Source: Acidimicrobiia bacterium (GTDB lineage Bacteria > Actinomycetota > Acidimicrobiia > Spongiisociales > UBA11373). From it: a stretch of DNA of 64,000 nucleotides. The position numbers were made by a program, and so were the translations under genes. The stretch spans positions 148,801 through 212,800 of the forward strand of contig JBBEAX010000085.1 in NCBI GenBank assembly GCA_040882645.1, in the 5' to 3' direction. Below, piece after piece: positions 5,568 through 52,583 of the stretch (positions within the stretch are counted from its first letter, which is position 1; every line of letters begins with the position of its first letter). The notes beneath the pieces are model-generated. The model saw only the letters and a list, made by a program, of their open reading frames with translations, did not search any database and had not been told where the DNA came from.

Positions 5568-6524
5568 CTATGAGACATCGACTGCGAAGTCGTCTAGTGG
5601 GAGTGCCCGCACCTCTGCCGAGGCGGCACCACCGGGCCATCGAATCTCCACCTCGGTACCAGGTTCGATCTCCCGCCTCACCGTCCCGAGGGCGATGGGT
5701 GCCCGCAGGGTCAGGGACTCACCGACAGATGAGAGCGCCCCGACCACATCACCGCCGTGGACGACATCTGCTCCCACCGGCGGGACGACCGTCTCACGCA
5801 ACACGATGCCGCGGAGGAGGCGATTCACATGGCCCCGTGAATCGATCCGGGCAACGAGTTCCTGGCCGACATAACAACCCTTGGTGAAGGAGACCGCGGC
5901 GGGAACCAGTCCCGTCTCCTGGGGAATGGTCACTTCGGTCGCATCCTGGCCCATTACCGGTTCGCCGGCCTCGATGCGCACGGTGGTCGCCGCGATCGAG
6001 CCGATGGGGCGGGCGCCCGCCAGGTCGGCTCCGCCGACGACGAGGAACCGAGGAACTCCGACCGGAATCGAGGCGACGACCGCGCCGTCGGCTGCCACCG
6101 CCCATCCCTCCGGGACCGGCAAACCTGCGTTCGCCAGCACCGTCGGCGTCTCGGGTCCCCACAAGGCCGCGATCGGTCGATCGTCGAGTGTTATGGCCGC
6201 GTCGACTCGAAAGCGAAACCGTTCGAGGAGCGTCGACGCCGTCAGGCCCACTCCGCGGTCTGCCACCAGGCCGACCCGGTCGGCACCCATCAGCACCCAG
6301 AGGATCGCTCGCAACTTCCCGCGGGGTTCGAGCAGGAACGATCGCGCCACTTCACCGGGCTTCATCGCGCCGAGGTCCTGAGTCAGTTGGCCGTCGAGAA
6401 ACCGGACTGCGTCAGGTCCGTCGACCCAGATCAGATCATGCGATCCCTGCAGCACCGCCGCCCCCCGGCGAGCCGCAAAATACTCGCCGGTGGTGTCGCC
6501 GTAAGAGAGGGGCGTCGCGGTCAT
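5568..6524 (-). CDS. ygfZ: YgfZ/GcvT-like folate-binding protein (aminomethyltransferase fold)
   Basis: 318 aa, GcvT-like N-terminal domain pattern (DLIWVDGPDAVRFLDGQLTQD). Confidence 0.7.
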   Translation of the reverse strand: MTATPLSYGDTTGEYFAARRGAAVLQGSHDLIWVDGPDAVRFLDGQLTQDLGAMKPGEVARSFLLEPRGKLRAILWVLMGADRVGLVADRGVGLTASTLLERFRFRVDAAITLDDRPIAALWGPETPTVLANAGLPVPEGWAVAADGAVVASIPVGVPRFLVVGGADLAGARPIGSIAATTVRIEAGEPVMGQDATEVTIPQETGLVPAAVSFTKGCYVGQELVARIDSRGHVNRLLRGIVLRETVVPPVGADVVHGGDVVGALSSVGESLTLRAPIALGTVRREIEPGTEVEIRWPGGAASAEVRALPLDDFAVDVS

Positions 6525-45424: not shown

Positions 45425-46329
45425 CAGATCCGCTCCGCGACCCGGAGCCGCGCACTGCGTGCTCGGGGATTGGCCGTGATCTCTACCTCGGCGGGAAGTT
45501 CGGGACGGCGAGTCAGAATCCGCAACTCAGCGATCTGGTCGCAGACGCACACCGGAAACTCCGGAGGACAGACACAATCACGCGCGCCGGCAACGAAACG
45601 CAACTTGACGATGCGATCCTCGAGCGACTGGTAGGAGATCACGATGATCCGTCCTCCAGGTCGCAGCAGCCGCAGGGCGAGGTCCAGACCATCGGCAAGT
45701 GCCTCCAGCTCGTCATTGACTGCGATGCGGATCGCCTGAAAAGTTCGGCGGGCAGGATGGGGCCGATCGCGGGGCCCAGGCGGCACGGCCCCGGCGACCA
45801 CGTCGGCGAGATGCGCCGTGTCGCGGATCGGCCGATTGCGGACGATCGCCCTGACGATGCGTTTGGCGAAGCGTTCTTCGCCGAACTGGCGAAGGATCCG
45901 GACCAATTCGGCTTCTTCCCAGCGGTTGACGACGTCGTCGGCACTCCGTGGGGCGTCCGGGCCCATCCGCATGTCGAGAGGGCCAGACCGTTGATAGGAG
46001 AACCCTCGCTCCCCCACGTCGAGCTGATGCGAGGAGACCCCGAGGTCGAAGACGGCTGCAGCGAGCTCATCGATGCCCTCCAGGTCCAGCGGCCGATCCA
46101 GCGAACGGAAGTCGGCGAGATGGAACGAAAGGCGGGGATGAGGCTGGGTCGGGCGCGCTGCCGGGTCGCGATCGAGCGCGATCACCCGTGACGCCGGCAG
46201 CGCCTCGAGGATCGCCGCCGAATGCCCTCCGCCGCCGTAGGTCGTGTCGAGGATCACTCCCCCGTCGAGCGGTCGCAGCCAATGGACGACCCGATCGACC
46301 AGAACCGGAATGTGATAGGCGCGGTCCAC
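45424..46329 (-). CDS. rsmH: 16S rRNA (cytosine1402-N4)-methyltransferase
   Basis: HIPVLVDRVV...DTTYGGGGHS SAM motif. Confidence 0.9.
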   Translation of the reverse strand: MDRAYHIPVLVDRVVHWLRPLDGGVILDTTYGGGGHSAAILEALPASRVIALDRDPAARPTQPHPRLSFHLADFRSLDRPLDLEGIDELAAAVFDLGVSSHQLDVGERGFSYQRSGPLDMRMGPDAPRSADDVVNRWEEAELVRILRQFGEERFAKRIVRAIVRNRPIRDTAHLADVVAGAVPPGPRDRPHPARRTFQAIRIAVNDELEALADGLDLALRLLRPGGRIIVISYQSLEDRIVKLRFVAGARDCVCPPEFPVCVCDQIAELRILTRRPELPAEVEITANPRARSARLRVAERI

Positions 46330-46429
46330 GGTCAGCCCTCCAGAGCGCTGGCGTCAATATGGAAGCGGGCGGAGTAAGGGGCTTTCCACGTGACATCCGG
46401 AGGGCTGACCCTGAGCCGTACCTCATCAT

Positions 46430-46861
46430 TCAGATTCCTTCCTCGCTGAGAGACTCCTCGATTCCCGAGTAGAGGTCGTCGGCCTCGTGCGAGACCGCCT
46501 CCCACTGCGCGGTGTCCCAGATCTCCACGCGATCCGCCACCCCGAGGACGACGACGTCCTTGTCGAGAGCGGCGTAGGTGCGGAGGGGTTGGGGGATCTG
46601 CACCCGGCCCTGCTTGTCCATCTGCTGGTCGGTGGCCGACCCGAAGAACGACCGCGCGTAGTTCCGGTTGCGGTGGTTGGTCCGTGGCAGTCGGTTGATC
46701 CGTGCCACCTCTTCCTCCCATCGGTCCATCGGGAATACGTAGAGACATCGCTCCTGGCCCTTGGTGACGACCAGGCCACGCGACAGGCGATCGCGAAAGC
46801 GGGCGGGCATGACCACCCTCCCCTTGTCGTCCACGCTGTGCTGGTACTCGCCGAGGAACAC
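46430..46861 (-). CDS. mraZ: Transcriptional regulator MraZ
   Basis: MFLGEYQHSVDDKGRVVMP plus a second DxxxR repeat. Confidence 0.9.
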   Translation of the reverse strand: MFLGEYQHSVDDKGRVVMPARFRDRLSRGLVVTKGQERCLYVFPMDRWEEEVARINRLPRTNHRNRNYARSFFGSATDQQMDKQGRVQIPQPLRTYAALDKDVVVLGVADRVEIWDTAQWEAVSHEADDLYSGIEESLSEEGI

Positions 46862-46965
46862 TCGGTTTCTCCGTCCTTCGCACCGTCATCGCCTCGCTTC
46901 CGAGGGCGCTGGGCCAAGGAACAAGTCGTGCTCCGCTTCGGAGATCGATTTGTTCCCGTTCTCCA

Positions 46966-47004
46966 CGTTGTCCCACTTTGGACCACTCTAACCCACTTGT
47001 CAAC
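46966..47004 (-). promoter_or_regulatory. mraZ promoter: TTGACA -35 followed by three AGTGG(G/T) direct repeats spaced 10 bp (MraZ-box array)
   Basis: The minus strand reads ggTTGACAAGTGGGttagAGTGGTccaaAGTGGGac. MraZ is established to bind triplicated GTGGG-type repeats in its own promoter. Confidence 0.5.
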
Positions 47005-47106
47005 CCGTTTGTGACACTTCGGAACCATTCCGAACCCCCGGTGGATGCCTGATGGGATGGGCCGACGCCCCGGCGTCGCCCCCACCGGCGCATCTAGCCT
47101 GGACGC

Positions 47107-47832
47107 ATGCTGCAGGGGCGGAACATCCTGGTGACGGGCGCGTCGAGCGGAATCGGGCGCGGCTTGGCGCTCGAGTACGCCGTCAACGGCGCCCGGGTGT
47201 GGGCGGTGGGGCGCCGCTCCGAGCCCCTCGAGCGGGTGGCGGAGGAGGCGTCCGGGCGGATCACCCCATTGGCCGTCGACCTCACCACCCTTGGCGGCCG
47301 GAGGGCGGTGGCCACCGCCATCGAGCACGACGGCGGCCGCCTCGATGTCGCAGTCCACGCCGCCGGGCTACTCGGCCCGGTCGGAATCAGTCTCGCCGAT
47401 TACCCCGAGGACGAATGGCGCGCGGTGTTCGAGATCAACGTGACCGCAGTGCACCTGTTGCACCAGGACCTCCAGCGCCACCTCGACCGCGGGGTGGCCC
47501 CGGCCGTGATCGGATTGGCGTCCACAGTCGGACGCGAGCCGCGGGCGGGCTGGGGGATGTATGCCGTCTCCAAGCATGCCCTCGAGGGATGGTTGGGTAC
47601 GCTCGCCGCAGAGTGGCCGGCGGGCCGGGTCTACTCGGTGAACCCCGGCGGAACCCGTACCCCGATGCGGGCAGAGGCGCGCCCTGACGAGGATCCGGCA
47701 ACCGTCCCCGCTCCCGGGGAGATCGCCCCACTGTTCCTCCGCCTCGCCCACCCGGCAGCACCTGAGCCTTCGGGATCGGTTCTCGAAGCCCGGGACTGGA
47801 TCGGACACGACCCCTGGGAGGGCCTCGGCTGA
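47107..47832 (+). CDS. SDR-family short-chain dehydrogenase/reductase
   Basis: TGASSGIGRG Rossmann motif and catalytic YAVSK. Confidence 0.8.
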   Translation: MLQGRNILVTGASSGIGRGLALEYAVNGARVWAVGRRSEPLERVAEEASGRITPLAVDLTTLGGRRAVATAIEHDGGRLDVAVHAAGLLGPVGISLADYPEDEWRAVFEINVTAVHLLHQDLQRHLDRGVAPAVIGLASTVGREPRAGWGMYAVSKHALEGWLGTLAAEWPAGRVYSVNPGGTRTPMRAEARPDEDPATVPAPGEIAPLFLRLAHPAAPEPSGSVLEARDWIGHDPWEGLG

Positions 47833-47840
47833 GAGGGCTC

Positions 47841-48464
47841 TCAGTCCCCAGCCGTCGAGTCTTCGGCCGTGTCGGCGGTGATGATGTGGATCATGACGTC
47901 ACCATCCGGAAGGATCCCGGGGGGGTCGATGCGATGCGCCCCGATCGACCGGGCGTGCTCCCCCACCCGCTCCAAGACGTCGCGAATGATCATCCGGCTG
48001 GGACCAGGCCCTTCCGCCGCGTCGAGGAGCGGCAGATCGGCGGGGTCGGTGGAGATCACCAGCACCCCGCGTCCCCGCAGATCCCACAGCATGATCTCCT
48101 GGACGATCTGATCGGAAGACAGCACCGACACCCCCGGCACGATTACAGCGTCGGCGGCGCCCGAAGCGATGACCCCCAGGAGCCCGAGATAGCCGTCACG
48201 GCCGAGCGCCTCGCCGGCGACTCGAGCGTCGAGGCAGACCGCCACGATGGACAGCCCATGCTCGAGCGCATGGCGGCGGATCGCTTCTTGTTGCTCGAAT
48301 GCCGAGTGTCCCGCCGACGGGTCGGCGGACTCGCGCACATACCCCACGACGCGCACAGAACCTCCCGCTGCAAATCGTACCACTACGGATAGTGCGGGGT
48401 TGGGTGACGGATAGTGCTCGGAGCAGCCCCCGCTCCAGCCACAGCCACGGCCAGAATCAGCCAC
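47841..48464 (-). CDS. Serine-recombinase (resolvase) catalytic-domain-like protein, no recognisable DNA-binding domain
   Basis: VVGYVRESADPS...EQQEAIRRHALEHGLSIVAVCLDARVAG...DAVIVPGVSVLSSD matches the resolvase N-terminal domain pattern (Y-x-R-x-S nucleophile region, vxxxDxgxSG-like, vlvvxxldRl-like). Start uncertain: M at 48464 or an internal GTG. Confidence 0.45.
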   Translation of the reverse strand: MADSGRGCGWSGGCSEHYPSPNPALSVVVRFAAGGSVRVVGYVRESADPSAGHSAFEQQEAIRRHALEHGLSIVAVCLDARVAGEALGRDGYLGLLGVIASGAADAVIVPGVSVLSSDQIVQEIMLWDLRGRGVLVISTDPADLPLLDAAEGPGPSRMIIRDVLERVGEHARSIGAHRIDPPGILPDGDVMIHIITADTAEDSTAGD

Positions 48465-48496
48465 AGCCCCAGCAACGGCCAGACGCGTGAACGACC

Positions 48497-48600
48497 TCCC
48501 ATGCGGATCTGGCTGGGGCCGGAGCTGGAGCCGGAGCCGGATTGGCTGGGGCTGGAGCCGGAGCCGGGGCTTGGGGGCGGCTCAGACCGCCGCCCCCAAG
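48497..48600. repeat. ~33-nt tandem direct repeat x2 followed by a perfect 11-bp hairpin (cttgggggcgg/ccgcccccaag)
   Basis: ggctggggccggagctggagccggagccgga / ttggctggggctggagccggagccgggg, then cttgggggcggctcagaccgcccccaag. Confidence 0.5.
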
Positions 48601-49082
48601 TACGCGTGCCATGAGGGATGCGGCGGGGACCCGAGGCCAACCAGTAGCCAGCCGTGCTCGCGGGGGGCACCAGGGGCGCCCACCAGGCTCATCCCTGCCT
48701 CGTCGGGGGTCCGATCACCCTTACGGGTGTTGCACCGGCGGCAGGCGGCGACGACGTTCTCCCAGGTATGGGTGCCGCCCCGGGACCGGGGCATCACATG
48801 GTCGAGGTTCTCGGCGCCGTGACCGCAGTACTGGCAGGTGTGGAGATCGCGGGCAAACACCGCCCGGCGATTCAACGGGACCCTCCGACGGTACGGCACC
48901 CGCACGTACCTACGCAGCCGTATGACGGTGGGCACCTCCACCTCGAGGTGCTCCGACCGCCACACCTGGTTCTGCGAGTGGATCAGTTCGGCCTTCTCTC
49001 GCACCACCAGGACGACGGCGCGCCGCGCCGACACCACCGAAAGTGGCTCGAATGACGCGTTCAGGACGAGCGCTTGAGCCAT
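48582..49082 (-). CDS. HNH endonuclease
   Basis: CQYCGH...LDHVMPRSRGGTHTWENVVAACRRCNTRKG HNH motif. The stop codon lies inside the hairpin. Confidence 0.8.
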   Translation of the reverse strand: MAQALVLNASFEPLSVVSARRAVVLVVREKAELIHSQNQVWRSEHLEVEVPTVIRLRRYVRVPYRRRVPLNRRAVFARDLHTCQYCGHGAENLDHVMPRSRGGTHTWENVVAACRRCNTRKGDRTPDEAGMSLVGAPGAPREHGWLLVGLGSPPHPSWHAYLGAAV

Positions 49083-49136
49083 GCGACGCGCGACGATAGG
49101 CGAGCCGTGGACGGCATGCAGCGGGCAGCGACCCGG

Positions 49137-49451
49137 CTAGTCCTCTTCGACCGAATGCTTCCTCAGCACGTCGCGTTCGCCGGCCATGCGGCGGCGCCGA
49201 CGGCGCCACGATCGCCACAGCCAGCCGAGCACTTTGCCGCCTACCAACCCTGCCGCGAAGGTGGCGCTCAGCACCAGCCACTGGGGCGCGCTCCACTCAT
49301 AGTTCGCCCAAGCCAGGGTGGCGGTCTCGGTATTCGAAACGATGAGGATCACGATCGGGGTCAGGATCACGACCAGGAGGATCAGGGGCCCGATCCATCG
49401 TCTGGGCTCTTCGACTGTCTGCTGCTGGGTGTCGGGTCGATCGTTGGTCAT
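49137..49451 (-). CDS. LapA/DUF1049-like small membrane protein
   Basis: 104 aa, two TM helices, Arg-rich tail. Confidence 0.45.
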   Translation of the reverse strand: MTNDRPDTQQQTVEEPRRWIGPLILLVVILTPIVILIVSNTETATLAWANYEWSAPQWLVLSATFAAGLVGGKVLGWLWRSWRRRRRRMAGERDVLRKHSVEED

Positions 49452-49487
49452 CCGCCGATGATACGGATGTTGAAACCGGCTTGGGGC

Positions 49488-50237
49488 TCAGCTGCGGAGC
49501 GCGACGTAGGCGGCGCGGGCCACCGCGTATGCCTTGGCAGCTTTGACGATGGCAGCGCCGGCGACACGCGACCCGTTCGACTTCTCGACGACCACGGTCA
49601 CCACCTCGGATCCATCCACGGTCGCCGCCGACACCCACAGCATTCGCTGCGGCTTGCCTTCGGCGAGTGCCCCCACCGCGGCCACGATCGCCGAGGCTAC
49701 GGCCTCGTCGGTGACCGCCGCGGCGCGGCGACTGAACCGTTGACCATCCGCGGCAACCGCAGTCACCGTCACTCCGTCAGCGGCCTCCTCGTAGGCGAGG
49801 GCGGCCAGAGTGCGTCCGCTCCCCGAATCGTCCTGGGGCCGACCTGGAGAAGGACCAACCGCCGCGGGTGCGGATTCGACGGCCGGAGTCGAGGGCGGTT
49901 CACTCCTGATGTCCTCGGCGCGAGGCGGATCGGCTACCGGCGGTGACGGGGCGAGCGTCTCTGGTGTGGGCGGTGGCGCTTCCGGACGAGGCGGGACCGC
50001 CCCGGGGGCGAACGGCAGGCTCACCACCGGAGCAAGGTCGTCGTGGTCTCCCGCCACCCGCGAACGCATGCCATGTGACGCCAGCACCCGCTGCACCATC
50101 GCGCCGATCGCCTGCGGGTCGGCGTCCGGCCGCAGCCGAACCCGGACACCGGAAGGCGACCCGTCTTCGGCGTCCACCTCGGCATCGGCGATGCCGGGCA
50201 GGGCCATCAATTCATCACGAAGGCTGTCGGAGGCCAC
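49488..50237 (-). CDS. Hypothetical two-domain protein with a Pro-rich linker
   Basis: 249 aa, good GC3. Internally similar N- and C-domains (…GVRVRLRPDADPQAIGAMV… / …TVTAVAADGQRFSRRAAAVTDEAVASAIV…) separated by a PPRPEAPPPTPETLAPSPP linker. Confidence 0.4.
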   Translation of the reverse strand: MASDSLRDELMALPGIADAEVDAEDGSPSGVRVRLRPDADPQAIGAMVQRVLASHGMRSRVAGDHDDLAPVVSLPFAPGAVPPRPEAPPPTPETLAPSPPVADPPRAEDIRSEPPSTPAVESAPAAVGPSPGRPQDDSGSGRTLAALAYEEAADGVTVTAVAADGQRFSRRAAAVTDEAVASAIVAAVGALAEGKPQRMLWVSAATVDGSEVVTVVVEKSNGSRVAGAAIVKAAKAYAVARAAYVALRS

Positions 50238-50436
50238 CGGCCACTCCCTCTGCTGTTCCCCGTCGATCTCTGCTAGTCACAGAGAGTAGTCATATCTACC
50301 ACACTCTGTCACTGACTTTCTCGACCAAGGGGAGACCCACGGGAACCGCCCCGTCCCCGCCGGGAAGGGGCGCCCGTTCGTAATCCGCATTCCCCGACCA
50401 CTGATAGGCTCTCCCGCCACGAGACGAGGAGGCTCA

Positions 50437-51414
50437 GTGACGTCCCAACTGGCCCAGGACGAACTCGCCTGGTTCGCCGATCGGTTCGACGCGGTCGCTG
50501 CGAACATCGAACGCGTCATCCAGGGCAAGCGCGAGGCGGTCGACCTGGTGGTGATGAGCATGCTGTCGGAGGGCCATGTGCTCATCGAGGACGTCCCCGG
50601 CGTCGGCAAGACGCTGCTCGCCAAGTCGCTCGCCCGAAGCATCCACTGCGGTTTCACCCGCATCCAGTTCACCCCCGACCTGCTGCCCTCCGACATCACC
50701 GGGGTCTCCGTCTGGGACCGGGAGCGCAGCGGCTTCGTATTCCGCGCTGGACCGGTGTTCACGAACATCGTCCTTGGCGACGAGATCAACCGGGCGAGCC
50801 CGAAGACCCAGTCGGCGCTGCTCGAGGCCATGGAGGAGCACCAGGTAACCGTGGACGGCACCACCCGGGAACTGCCGGCTCCGTTCATGGTCATCGCCAC
50901 TCAGAACCCGATCGAGCACGAGGGCACCTATCCCCTGCCCGAGTCCCAGCTCGACCGGTTCATGATGCGGGTGATCATGGGCTACCCCTCCCGCGCCAAG
51001 GAACTCGAGATCCTCGAGACCCACGGGCGGCAGTCTTCCTACACAGACCTGGAACCGGTGGTCACTGCGGACGACGTGCAGCAGATGATCGGTATCGCGC
51101 GGCGGGTTCATGTCTCCGATCCGGTGAAGGAGTACCTCGTCGACACGGTGGAGGCGACCCGCCACGATCCCGACCTCCTGCTTGGCGCCTCGCCGCGAGC
51201 CACGCTGTACCTGCAGCGGGCCGCGCGGACCCGGGCGGCGGTTGCCGGTCGAGGATATGTGACCCCGGACGACGTGAAGGCGATTCTGCGCCCGGTGCTG
51301 ACCCACCGTTTGATCCTGCGGGCCGAAGCGCAGATGCGAGGCTCCGAAATCGACGAGATCCTCGACGGCGTCGCCGCCGGGATTCCCGTACCGGGGAGCG
51401 GGGTCAGGGCCTGA
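50437..51414 (+). CDS. MoxR-family AAA+ ATPase
   Basis: Walker A GVGKT, MoxR-specific LxEE and sensor motifs. Confidence 0.9.
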   Translation: MTSQLAQDELAWFADRFDAVAANIERVIQGKREAVDLVVMSMLSEGHVLIEDVPGVGKTLLAKSLARSIHCGFTRIQFTPDLLPSDITGVSVWDRERSGFVFRAGPVFTNIVLGDEINRASPKTQSALLEAMEEHQVTVDGTTRELPAPFMVIATQNPIEHEGTYPLPESQLDRFMMRVIMGYPSRAKELEILETHGRQSSYTDLEPVVTADDVQQMIGIARRVHVSDPVKEYLVDTVEATRHDPDLLLGASPRATLYLQRAARTRAAVAGRGYVTPDDVKAILRPVLTHRLILRAEAQMRGSEIDEILDGVAAGIPVPGSGVRA

Positions 51415-52583
51415 TGCCCACGGGCCGGGGCTGGTCCGCCATCGGCGTATCCGCCAGCCTCTTCGTCTTGTGGGCGGCGTTCGGCGAGAACGACCTGATG
51501 ACCACGGCGGTGTTCTTGATCGCCGCGGTCTTGGTCGGCCTGCTCTTCGTGCACATGGTCCCCCCGGAAGTAGCGGTGTGGAGGCGGATCACCCCGGCCC
51601 AGGTCCACGAGGGCGACACGGTGATCATCGACATGGATGTGATCGCGGCACGCCGGCTCCGCAACGTCTCTCTAGAGGACACCGTCCACGGGTTGGGTAC
51701 CGCACGATTCGCCGCCGGATCGGCGCGTCCCCGAGAGCCGCTGACCGGACGGTACGAAGTCCGCTGCCGCGGCCGGGGCATCTTCCCGGTAGGGCCGCTG
51801 GTGCTTTCGGTCTCGGACCCGTTCTCGTTGGCAGAGCGTCGCTCGAGCATCGGCGAGGTCGACCGCCTCACGGTCTATCCGCGGATCGAACCGCTCGTCG
51901 GATTGCCCGTGGTGAGGGGGCTCGACCCCACGGTCAATTCGACCCGGCCGACGTCGGCCCCCTTCGGCGGAGAGGACTTCTTCACCCTCCGCGAGTACCA
52001 GGTTGGCGACGACCTTCGTAAAGTCCATTGGCCCACTTCAGCGAAGCGCGACGAGTTGATGATCAAGCAGCTCGAGGTGCCGTGGCAGAACCGGGCTTTA
52101 GTGCTGCTCGATACTCGCTCGCACCGCTACCCGACCCCGGAGGCCTTCGAACAGGCGGTGCGAGGTGCGGCATCCGCGTTTGCTCACCTCCACCGGGCCG
52201 GATTCAGCCCCGAACTGTGGTCGGGCGCCAACACGCGCAGCCGGTCGTTGAATCGCTACGCCGAGGCGATGGAGACTCTTGCGACCATCCACGCTGGTGA
52301 CCGGCTCGACCTTCGCAACACAGTGAGTCGGCTGCTGAGCCACGGCGGCGGAGGCGGTGCCCTGGTGCTGGTGACCGGCACGCCAGACGAGGGCTTGCGC
52401 GGGGCCTACCGGTTGCTCGCCGGCCAATTCAGCCAGACGATTGTGATGGCGGTCACCGACGATCCTGATGCTGCCTCATCGCGGCTCCTCGGCATGAACG
52501 CGGTGATCGTCACCATCGGGACCCAGGGCCGCTGGGCACCCTCGTGGCGGGCGGCGATGGAGGTGACATGGGCTACCGCCTGA
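51414..52583 (+). CDS. DUF58 (vWA-like) protein
   Basis: FFTLREYQVGDDLRKVHWPTSAK signature of DUF58. Confidence 0.8.
   Translation: MPTGRGWSAIGVSASLFVLWAAFGENDLMTTAVFLIAAVLVGLLFVHMVPPEVAVWRRITPAQVHEGDTVIIDMDVIAARRLRNVSLEDTVHGLGTARFAAGSARPREPLTGRYEVRCRGRGIFPVGPLVLSVSDPFSLAERRSSIGEVDRLTVYPRIEPLVGLPVVRGLDPTVNSTRPTSAPFGGEDFFTLREYQVGDDLRKVHWPTSAKRDELMIKQLEVPWQNRALVLLDTRSHRYPTPEAFEQAVRGAASAFAHLHRAGFSPELWSGANTRSRSLNRYAEAMETLATIHAGDRLDLRNTVSRLLSHGGGGGALVLVTGTPDEGLRGAYRLLAGQFSQTIVMAVTDDPDAASSRLLGMNAVIVTIGTQGRWAPSWRAAMEVTWATA

Follow-up and report, generated by a model that had tools for sequence, protein, structure and literature searches.

Introduction

Serine recombinases are known as the enzymes of mobile elements and of phase switches. 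In Tn3 resolvase, mutation of Y6, R8, S10, D36, R68 or R71 greatly reduces both cleavage and recombination (Olorunniji and Stark, PMC2794168). Here we analyze RES, a protein composed of a resolvase catalytic domain only, encoded in a 64,000-nt stretch of an Acidimicrobiia contig (JBBEAX010000085.1; hereafter the window). The RES gene (47841-48356, minus strand; 171 residues) lies beside the gene for a 166-residue HNH nuclease (48582-49082, minus strand), a pair singled out in an earlier reading of the window that we refer to as the original prediction.

RES is a single-copy gene on the chromosome of one Acidimicrobiia clade, where it is inherited vertically; it is neither decaying nor recently mobile, and as a recombinase its product looks catalytically dead. 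The explanation that we favor, and that we regard as reasonably probable when taken as a whole, is that RES is a domesticated, non-catalytic serine recombinase which is transcribed from its own box-bearing promoter and acts as a partner of another protein, the HNH nuclease being the favored candidate. This explanation builds on the observed fold, residue losses, conservation, selection, synteny and box conservation.

Fold and active site of RES

The open reading frame at 47841-48464 (minus strand) matches Pfam Resolvase (PF00239) with 36.5 bits (cutoff 23.3, E 6e-9), and this is the sole domain found in it. The original prediction described a resolvase-like protein of about 200 residues; the gene stands and the length does not. 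We place the start of RES at the GTG codon at 48354-48356 (stop codon at 47841-47843) because the approximately 120 RES homologues, which are 160-190 residues long, begin with MRVVGYVRE, and because a Shine-Dalgarno sequence, GGGAGG, precedes this codon by 4 nt (48361-48366, minus strand). A GGAGG-like element is aligned at this place in all 22 upstream regions compared. The longer reading of 207 residues was rejected, since both the homologue starts and the Shine-Dalgarno sequence favor GTG 48356. When counted from this codon, the numbering of RES coincides with that of gamma-delta resolvase (G5 Y6 x R8 x S10).

The AlphaFold2 model of RES (predicted local distance difference test, pLDDT, 84.6) has a beta-alpha-beta core, a long helix E (residues 119-139) and a tail of low confidence. 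Every one of the 50 best PDB matches that Foldseek listed for this model is a serine-recombinase catalytic domain, with E 2e-6 to TP901-1, PhiC31, Bxb1, ISC1926 TnpA and gamma-delta resolvase. Likewise, the best PDB matches to a profile built from 71 homologues were the catalytic domains of ISC1926 TnpA (IS607-type), TnpX, MJ0014 and TP901-1. RES is thus, by PF00239 homology and by fold, a member of the serine recombinase superfamily. Neither Pfam nor the model reveals an attached DNA-binding domain, whether a helix-turn-helix (HTH) or a Recombinase domain with a zinc ribbon, in agreement with the original prediction of a catalytic domain that lacks an HTH or a large-recombinase C-terminal domain. 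Residues 140-171 are modeled with low confidence and are non-helical save for one 4-residue helix; the tail has low pLDDT yet carries a conserved DGDV..H.I motif. Twenty-four residues are invariant among the 71 sequences of the close subfamily, R121, R125 and R130 of helix E among them.

Active-site equivalences were assigned with hhalign against the gamma-delta resolvase sequence, verified to be identical to that of 1GDT, and with a MAFFT alignment that included the nearest canonical recombinases. RES keeps the equivalents of Y6, R8, D36 and R45. At the positions of D67, R68 and R71 the window protein has S77, V78 and S81, so that the place of the DRLxR motif reads SVLSS; the DRL-like region that the original prediction had seen is absent. 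Across 44 representatives of the wider family the R68 position is occupied by A, T, V or S and the R71 position by P, A or S, and in no case by arginine. Position 10 is a serine in the window protein, in 89% of the close subfamily (63 of 71, with three A, three T and two P) and in six of the six nearest canonical recombinases. In the wider family it varies (eight S, eight A, six L, four T, three V and three G among the 44, together with others), and a conserved nucleophile is therefore missing across the family. The earlier suggestion that YVRES is a variant nucleophile region is borne out insofar as a serine occupies the canonical position, and fails in that this serine is not kept family-wide and the R68 and R71 equivalents are gone. 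In these alignments RES, while still a clear homologue, fails on three hallmarks of serine recombinase activity, namely the two arginines, the conserved nucleophile and the DNA-binding domain.

A scan of 1.84 billion cluster representatives recovered a core RES family of proteins of 140-190 residues. Behind it came actinobacterial recombinases of about 240 residues, with YxRVSTDRQ, RLDRLARD and part of a Recombinase/HTH domain. A literature search on inactive serine recombinases, on those devoid of a DNA-binding domain and on YneB returned nothing relevant to the RES family.

Conservation, selection and neighborhood

The locus belongs to a gene set shared by about 120 related Acidimicrobiia loci drawn from genome and metagenome collections: rsmH-mraZ, SDR, LapA, HNH, RES, unk249 and MoxR-DUF58-TgpA. 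The genome scan that gathered these loci was seeded with RES only and sampled genomes that carry RES. In the window, the SDR gene (47107-47832, plus strand) is the neighbor of RES on one side, with mraZ and rsmH beyond it. On the other side, past HNH, come a gene for a small membrane protein with a LapA_dom match (49137-49451, minus strand; PF06305, 27.8 bits, slightly below the cutoff of 28), the gene for unk249, a conserved 249-residue protein (49488-50237, minus strand), and then MoxR and DUF58.

Relative to homologues at a synonymous divergence (dS) of 0.6-1.6, RES shows a ratio of nonsynonymous to synonymous substitution (dN/dS) of 0.10-0.15, similar to that of neighboring genes. The GC content of this GC-rich region is flat at 0.65-0.73 throughout the locus and like that of the flanks. 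No RES paralogue was found within the window, and no att-like direct repeats were found around 47700-49300. RES has no phage homologues and just two plasmid matches, both of them distant Streptomyces recombinases (29% identity); a phage or plasmid origin was rejected on this result. A search for cognate recombination sites found none, the matches to a weight matrix of the boxes described below being confined to the region upstream of RES and one coding look-alike in HNH. The locus thus has none of the marks of an integrated mobile element or genomic island: it lacks flanking repeats, its GC is host-like, and it occupies the same position in about 120 loci.

We considered whether RES could instead be the remnant of a mobile element, a pseudogene in progress whose adjoining repeats are leftover att or res sites. 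The loss of the catalytic residues and of the DNA-binding domain would be expected of such a remnant, and repeats and a hairpin do adjoin the gene. Against this stand the low dN/dS, the host-like GC and the lack of flanking direct repeats, as well as intact open reading frames of similar length in about 120 lineages with 24 invariant residues among 71 sequences. The repeats themselves fall into two kinds, tandem repeats that differ by lineage and 11-nt boxes that are conserved as promoter-proximal elements. We regard decay as very improbable. The original prediction had offered "decayed or domesticated mobile-element remnant" as one reading. Its first adjective is contradicted because RES is under purifying selection, and the second fits both the dN/dS and the shared neighborhood. 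The remnant as such finds no support in flat GC, absent att-like or flanking inverted repeats, absent phage homologues and two distant plasmid matches; att-like repeats flanking 47832-49137, which it had proposed to look for, were not found.

Wherever a locus shows both genes, HNH and RES are neighbors; this holds for L042 too, in which the HNH-RES-unk249-MoxR side is retained and the other flank is altered. An ortholog of LapA adjoins HNH in most loci. The two-gene module of the original prediction is compatible with this constant adjacency, which is weak evidence of partnership because in-place inversions cannot separate neighbors. That prediction had set its reading against that of a universally conserved single-copy pair of known function; the pair is indeed single-copy and conserved in position, and neither member has a known function.

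The order RES-unk249-MoxR is conserved as strongly as that of HNH and RES. The unk249 gene stands beside RES or HNH in nearly all related loci; of the loci that extend far enough, all but L041 contain it, and in none is it inverted. In L041, which holds the most divergent member of the family (36% identity), RES abuts MoxR. In the unk249 protein a Pro/Ala-rich linker joins two conserved domains, an N-terminal one of about 60 residues and a C-terminal one; the protein has no match in Pfam, NCBIfam, PADLOC, PHROG or the PDB, even with a 36-sequence profile. A role for it as the DNA-binding partner of RES was dropped, as that profile gave no Pfam or PDB match.

These arrangements raise the possibility that RES is functionally unlinked to HNH and serves as a non-catalytic regulator or adaptor for unk249, for the MoxR-DUF58-TgpA genes or for cell-envelope or division genes, its adjacency to HNH being historical. 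Such a role would account for the conserved RES-unk249-MoxR order, for the position of RES directly beside MoxR in L041 and for the side that L042 has kept, and it agrees with the observation that the promoter and boxes of RES stay with RES whichever way HNH points. It leaves unexplained why HNH adjoins RES in every locus showing both sides, L042 included, and the recombinase fold with its helix-E arginines suggests contact with nucleic acid and not a link to AAA+/VWA proteins. We consider this alternative unlikely, though it is the strongest of those weighed here.

Several features of the wider neighborhood may be recorded here. The MoxR (AAA_3)-DUF58-TgpA (transglutaminase) operon, with MerR and DUF3040 genes after it, occupies 50437-52583 and beyond in the window, and is also found in L001, L002 and L041; it stands beside the dcw cluster in all these Acidimicrobiia. 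The SDR and RES genes converge, with ends 8 bp apart and both stop codons within a small palindrome, CTGAGAGGGCTCTCAG (47829-47844). A locus of the Acidimicrobiia type also occurs on contigs of metagenome-assembled genomes labeled Kiloniellaceae, Wenzhouxiangellaceae or Gemmatimonadetes (L008, L013; proteins P0211, P0236), which is probably a matter of mis-binning.

Inversions of the small genes

Six arrangements of the small genes were found among loci L001-L122, and in quick neighbor-joining trees they imply at least six independent inversions of LapA, HNH and RES among some 100 Acidimicrobiia lineages. The surrounding rsmH, mraZ, SDR, unk249, MoxR and DUF58 genes have never switched orientation. 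With midpoint rooting, the divergent arrangement (HNH minus, RES plus) is basal and HNH has turned co-directional at least twice. L003, L046 and L047 carry an inverted HNH-RES pair, in the window and in L035-L037 the inversion takes in the whole RES-HNH-LapA block, and RES or HNH is configured otherwise in L034 and L065.

In tblastn maps, the segment 47833-49487 of the window lineage, which holds RES, HNH and LapA, is inverted relative to the commonest order (SDR plus, LapA plus, HNH plus, RES plus, unk249 minus). Breakpoints located by blastn against L005 fall in the 8-bp gap between SDR and RES and in the 36-bp gap between LapA and unk249. No inverted or att-like repeats that could serve as inversion sites were found at the breakpoints, and the inverted repeats that flank the segment in six loci are imperfect ones at chance level. 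Three arrangements occur among fairly close relatives (the window, L003 and L005), each arrangement is fixed in its own clade at a dS of at least 0.6 from the others, and the closest relatives of the window (L035, L036 and L037; 86-100% identity) all share its orientation. No sign of an active switch was found in these assembled sequences; orientation is clade-specific.

Inversions limited to one segment invite the idea that RES is an active invertase or recombinase whose active site is unconventional, and that it inverts the surrounding small genes by borrowing DNA binding from a partner (the N-terminal domain of HNH, unk249 or another protein). The at least six inversions with unflipped flanks, the three arrangements among fairly close relatives, the retained Y6, R8, D36 and R45 equivalents and helix-E arginines, and the serine that 89% of the close subfamily have at position 10 all speak for this idea. 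It is opposed by the absence of the R68 and R71 equivalents from every member, the loss of S10 in most of the divergent members and the lack of a DNA-binding domain. Neither inverted repeats nor box-like sites flank the inverted segments, and both the clade-fixed arrangements and the uniform orientation of L035-L037 run counter to ongoing inversion. An enzyme of this kind is, in our estimate, improbable.

The spacer upstream of RES

HNH and RES are separated by 225 bp (48357-48581), and not by the 120 bp or so of the original prediction, which had correctly seen an 11-nt direct repeat, 33-nt tandem repeats and a hairpin between them. Exact copies of the 11-nt repeat, ACGGATAGTGC, occupy 48385-48395 and 48407-48417; with the corrected start they belong to the spacer and not to the longer reading frame drawn in the original prediction. 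The repeat is not significant by itself: the corresponding pattern, CACTNTCCG, occurs three times in the window where 2.7 occurrences are expected. What makes it significant is that other loci keep it at a constant distance from the start codon. Read on the minus strand, in the sense of RES, each copy is a box of sequence GCACTATCCGT. In the proximal box (48385-48395), which precedes the start codon by about 40 nt in most loci, CAC..T..GT is invariant in 22 loci; the distal box (48407-48417) lies 22 nt further upstream, and a CAC(G/T)CTCCGCAG box is found 20-22 nt upstream of the proximal one in most loci. Two boxes with a consensus of approximately CAC(T/G)CTCCG(T/C), some 40 and 62 nt ahead of the start codon, are thus present in arrangements A to D and, irrespective of the direction of HNH, in almost all loci, within spacers that are otherwise unalignable and vary from 71 to 334 nt.

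Within the window, the box weight matrix scores only upstream of RES and at the look-alike in HNH. The latter, AGCCACTTTCGGTGGT, lies in HNH codons 12-17 (49033-49048, minus strand), encodes the conserved EPLSVV and is found again at this position of HNH in L003, L005, L006, L023 and L036; in view of the coding constraint on EPLSVV we treat its resemblance to a box as probably coincidental. To our knowledge, the region upstream of RES bears no resemblance to an SOS (LexA) box or to a RecA-independent promoter motif.

Directly downstream of the boxes is a likely extended -10 element, TGGTACGAT (TGnTANNNT; 48374-48382, minus strand), which may mark the RES promoter. In the alignment of 22 loci, the A and T of its hexamer reach a conservation of at least 90%, and TGnTANNNT recurs at this place in loci of arrangements A, C and D. 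Loci of arrangement B, with divergent genes, have TTGACA-N17-nAnACT instead, overlapped by the proximal box. A hairpin between the two boxes (CCACG/CGTGG) was considered and dropped, as its register fails in the window and it shows no consistent covariation.

The rest of the spacer holds a degenerate (TGGCTG)n tract found by Tandem Repeats Finder (48436-48481, minus strand), with inverted-repeat pairs I1 and I2, and a 33-nt tandem repeat of 1.9 copies at 90% (48504-48567, minus strand), which can also be read as about eight copies of (CCGGCT)n. The two tracts are complementary and fold into a long imperfect stem in the window (z = -4.2). The (TGGCTG)n tract is not conserved in relatives, and the corresponding spacer of other lineages contains either different tandem repeats or none. 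Compared across loci, the tandem repeats are lineage-specific filler or expansions of the spacer and not conserved elements. The HNH-RES spacers of other loci contain (ACTCAGA)x5 in L007, (ACTGGCA)x2.7 in L006 and (CGTCGGTG)x4.6 in L036, and the MoxR-RES spacer of L041 (approximately 5930-5970) has (GGTACTT)x4.5 where the boxes would stand. Either the sequence upstream of RES is prone to repeat expansion, it seems, or repeated motifs are needed there. Two further candidates in the spacer were set aside. A hydrophobic open reading frame of 40 residues (ATG 48503 to stop 48383) is an artefact of the translated (TGGCTG)n tract, its ATG being lost in L035 (88% identity). A conserved non-coding RNA was rejected because Rfam has no match in 46300-50600, spacer length is variable, and the repeats and the strong fold are lineage-specific.

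At the HNH end of the spacer, a perfect hairpin (48570-48600, minus strand; -38 kcal/mol local fold) spans the HNH stop codon. The original prediction had given it 11 bp over the stop codon; the stem measures 12 bp (48570-48581 with 48589-48600) and the stop codon sits in the 7-nt loop. Stop-spanning hairpins of differing sequence follow HNH in many relatives. The element is probably a terminator of HNH, or a stabilizer of the 3' end of its transcript, that lacks a U-tract.

The neighboring HNH protein

The HNH endonuclease named in the original prediction is confirmed by two Pfam matches, to HNH_5 (PF14279; 55.9 bits, E 4e-15) and to HNH (PF01844; 49.9 bits, E 4e-13). Among 43 sequences C83, C86, C114 and C117 (CxxC...CxxC), D94-H95, N109 and N118 are invariant, so that the metal and zinc ligands of a beta-beta-alpha-Me endonuclease are intact. 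The protein is better conserved than RES (70-90% identity, dN/dS 0.05-0.12), and its AlphaFold2 model (pLDDT 84) matches the HNH domains of Cas9 and IscB, EcoKMcrA and Gme HNH. It looks like an active stand-alone nuclease. It is neither IscB nor Cas9: it has 166 residues and no RuvC domain, no Rfam RNA that might act as a guide was found in 46300-50600, it scores far below the NCBIfam cutoffs for both, and its match to the IscB model NF040563 (47.8 bits against a cutoff of 175) covers the HNH segment only.

The beta-rich N-terminal domain of the protein (residues 1-56, listed as window 48582-48830) has the consensus VLNATYEPLSVVSARRAVVLLVREKAE and no match among solved structures. To us it is reminiscent of the N-terminal PLMP domain of IscB; the PDB matches, which covered the HNH domain only, neither support nor refute this likeness. 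PADLOC has no match for RES, LapA or unk249 and gives only generic HNH matches for HNH, and membership in a defense system was rejected on this result.

With an intact nuclease beside it, RES could form part of a two-protein machine that rearranges or processes DNA, in which the dead resolvase domain would supply synapsis or architecture through helix E and its retained arginines while HNH would cleave the strands. Such a machine, if real, would account for the at least six inversions restricted to this segment. We give it little credence, about as much as an active invertase.

Proposed role of RES

In the explanation that we favor, a domesticated non-catalytic RES, the protein would have kept the catalytic-domain fold with helix E while losing the DNA-binding domain and key catalytic residues, and would no longer cut and rejoin DNA by the resolvase mechanism. 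Its gene is probably transcribed from a promoter of its own, with an extended -10 element in the window lineage. The two boxes of about 10 nt, set 22 nt apart, appear to overlap this promoter and would most likely be the operator of a regulator, and the hairpin over the HNH stop codon would terminate or stabilize the HNH transcript. We suggest that RES works non-catalytically as an oligomerizing or DNA-contacting partner, by means of helix E and the flexibly linked C-terminal peptide, which is conserved. HNH may be that partner, but unk249 or MoxR is a candidate of about equal plausibility.

Several points weigh against this explanation. RES is equally constant near unk249 and MoxR, and abuts MoxR in L041. 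The window protein retains Y6, R8, S10, D36 and R45, and residual or altered chemistry is conceivable on this basis. At least six fixed inversions confined to the small genes are not accounted for by a completely inert protein. On the regulatory side, a generic promoter scan was negative, the box weight matrix was trained on the very sites that it scored, and the promoter, operator and terminator roles are proposed at the level of consensus sequences. The relatives, moreover, all come from metagenome-assembled genomes.

If RES is truly non-catalytic, it would represent a clean exaptation of the resolvase fold, kept across an uncultured Acidimicrobiia clade beside the cell-division cluster. Caution in annotation would then be called for: proteins of this type are labeled "recombinase family protein" or "DNA invertase Pin-like", and pipelines that search for mobile genetic elements would count them as markers of such elements. 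The constant pairing with an intact HNH nuclease and the local inversion hot spot lead to concrete, testable hypotheses; the practical significance will be modest until a function is shown.

Comparison with known systems

Among the known relatives of RES are the small serine recombinases of PF00239, such as gamma-delta/Tn3 resolvase and Hin/Gin. RES shares their catalytic fold and helix E, their Y6, R8, D36 and R45 equivalents, and an N-terminal motif that is numbered identically (GYxRxS, residues 5-10). It differs from them in lacking a C-terminal HTH, in the replacement of D67, R68 and R71, in an S10 that is not conserved family-wide and in an invariant glutamate at position 9. Res- or hix-like sites are also missing, and RES is a fixed chromosomal gene outside any transposon, phage or plasmid.

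The neighboring HNH protein has the full HNH motif set and the zinc-binding cysteines of stand-alone McrA/Cas9/IscB-type HNH nucleases. It differs from Cas9 and IscB in having no RuvC domain and in being a conserved chromosomal gene outside the defense systems known to PADLOC.

Like RES, the YneB family (NF049883) consists of chromosomal resolvase-like proteins. YneB has about 210 residues and in Bacillus subtilis lies beside a cell-division-related gene. RES scores 13.9 bits against the family cutoff of 175, and thus is not a member.

Among solved structures, the best profile match to RES (E 2e-5), and also one of the top fold matches, is the catalytic domain of the IS607-family TnpA (ISC1926 TnpA, PDB 6DGC). 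TnpA has an N-terminal MerR-like DNA-binding domain and the full catalytic set and is carried on an insertion sequence, whereas RES has neither a DNA-binding domain nor an insertion-sequence context.

The nearest canonical relatives are the actinobacterial recombinases of about 240 residues (Resolvase plus partial Recombinase, PF07508; P0298-P0321), which the RES profile finds with E 1e-17 to 1e-11. These proteins keep YxRVSTDRQ and RLDRLARD together with about 90 extra C-terminal residues that form an HTH-like Recombinase segment, none of which is present in RES. The two groups share family-specific stretches, DPSR(R/K)MIRQVL in the recombinases corresponding to PGPSRMIIRDVL in RES, and LVQE to IVQE.

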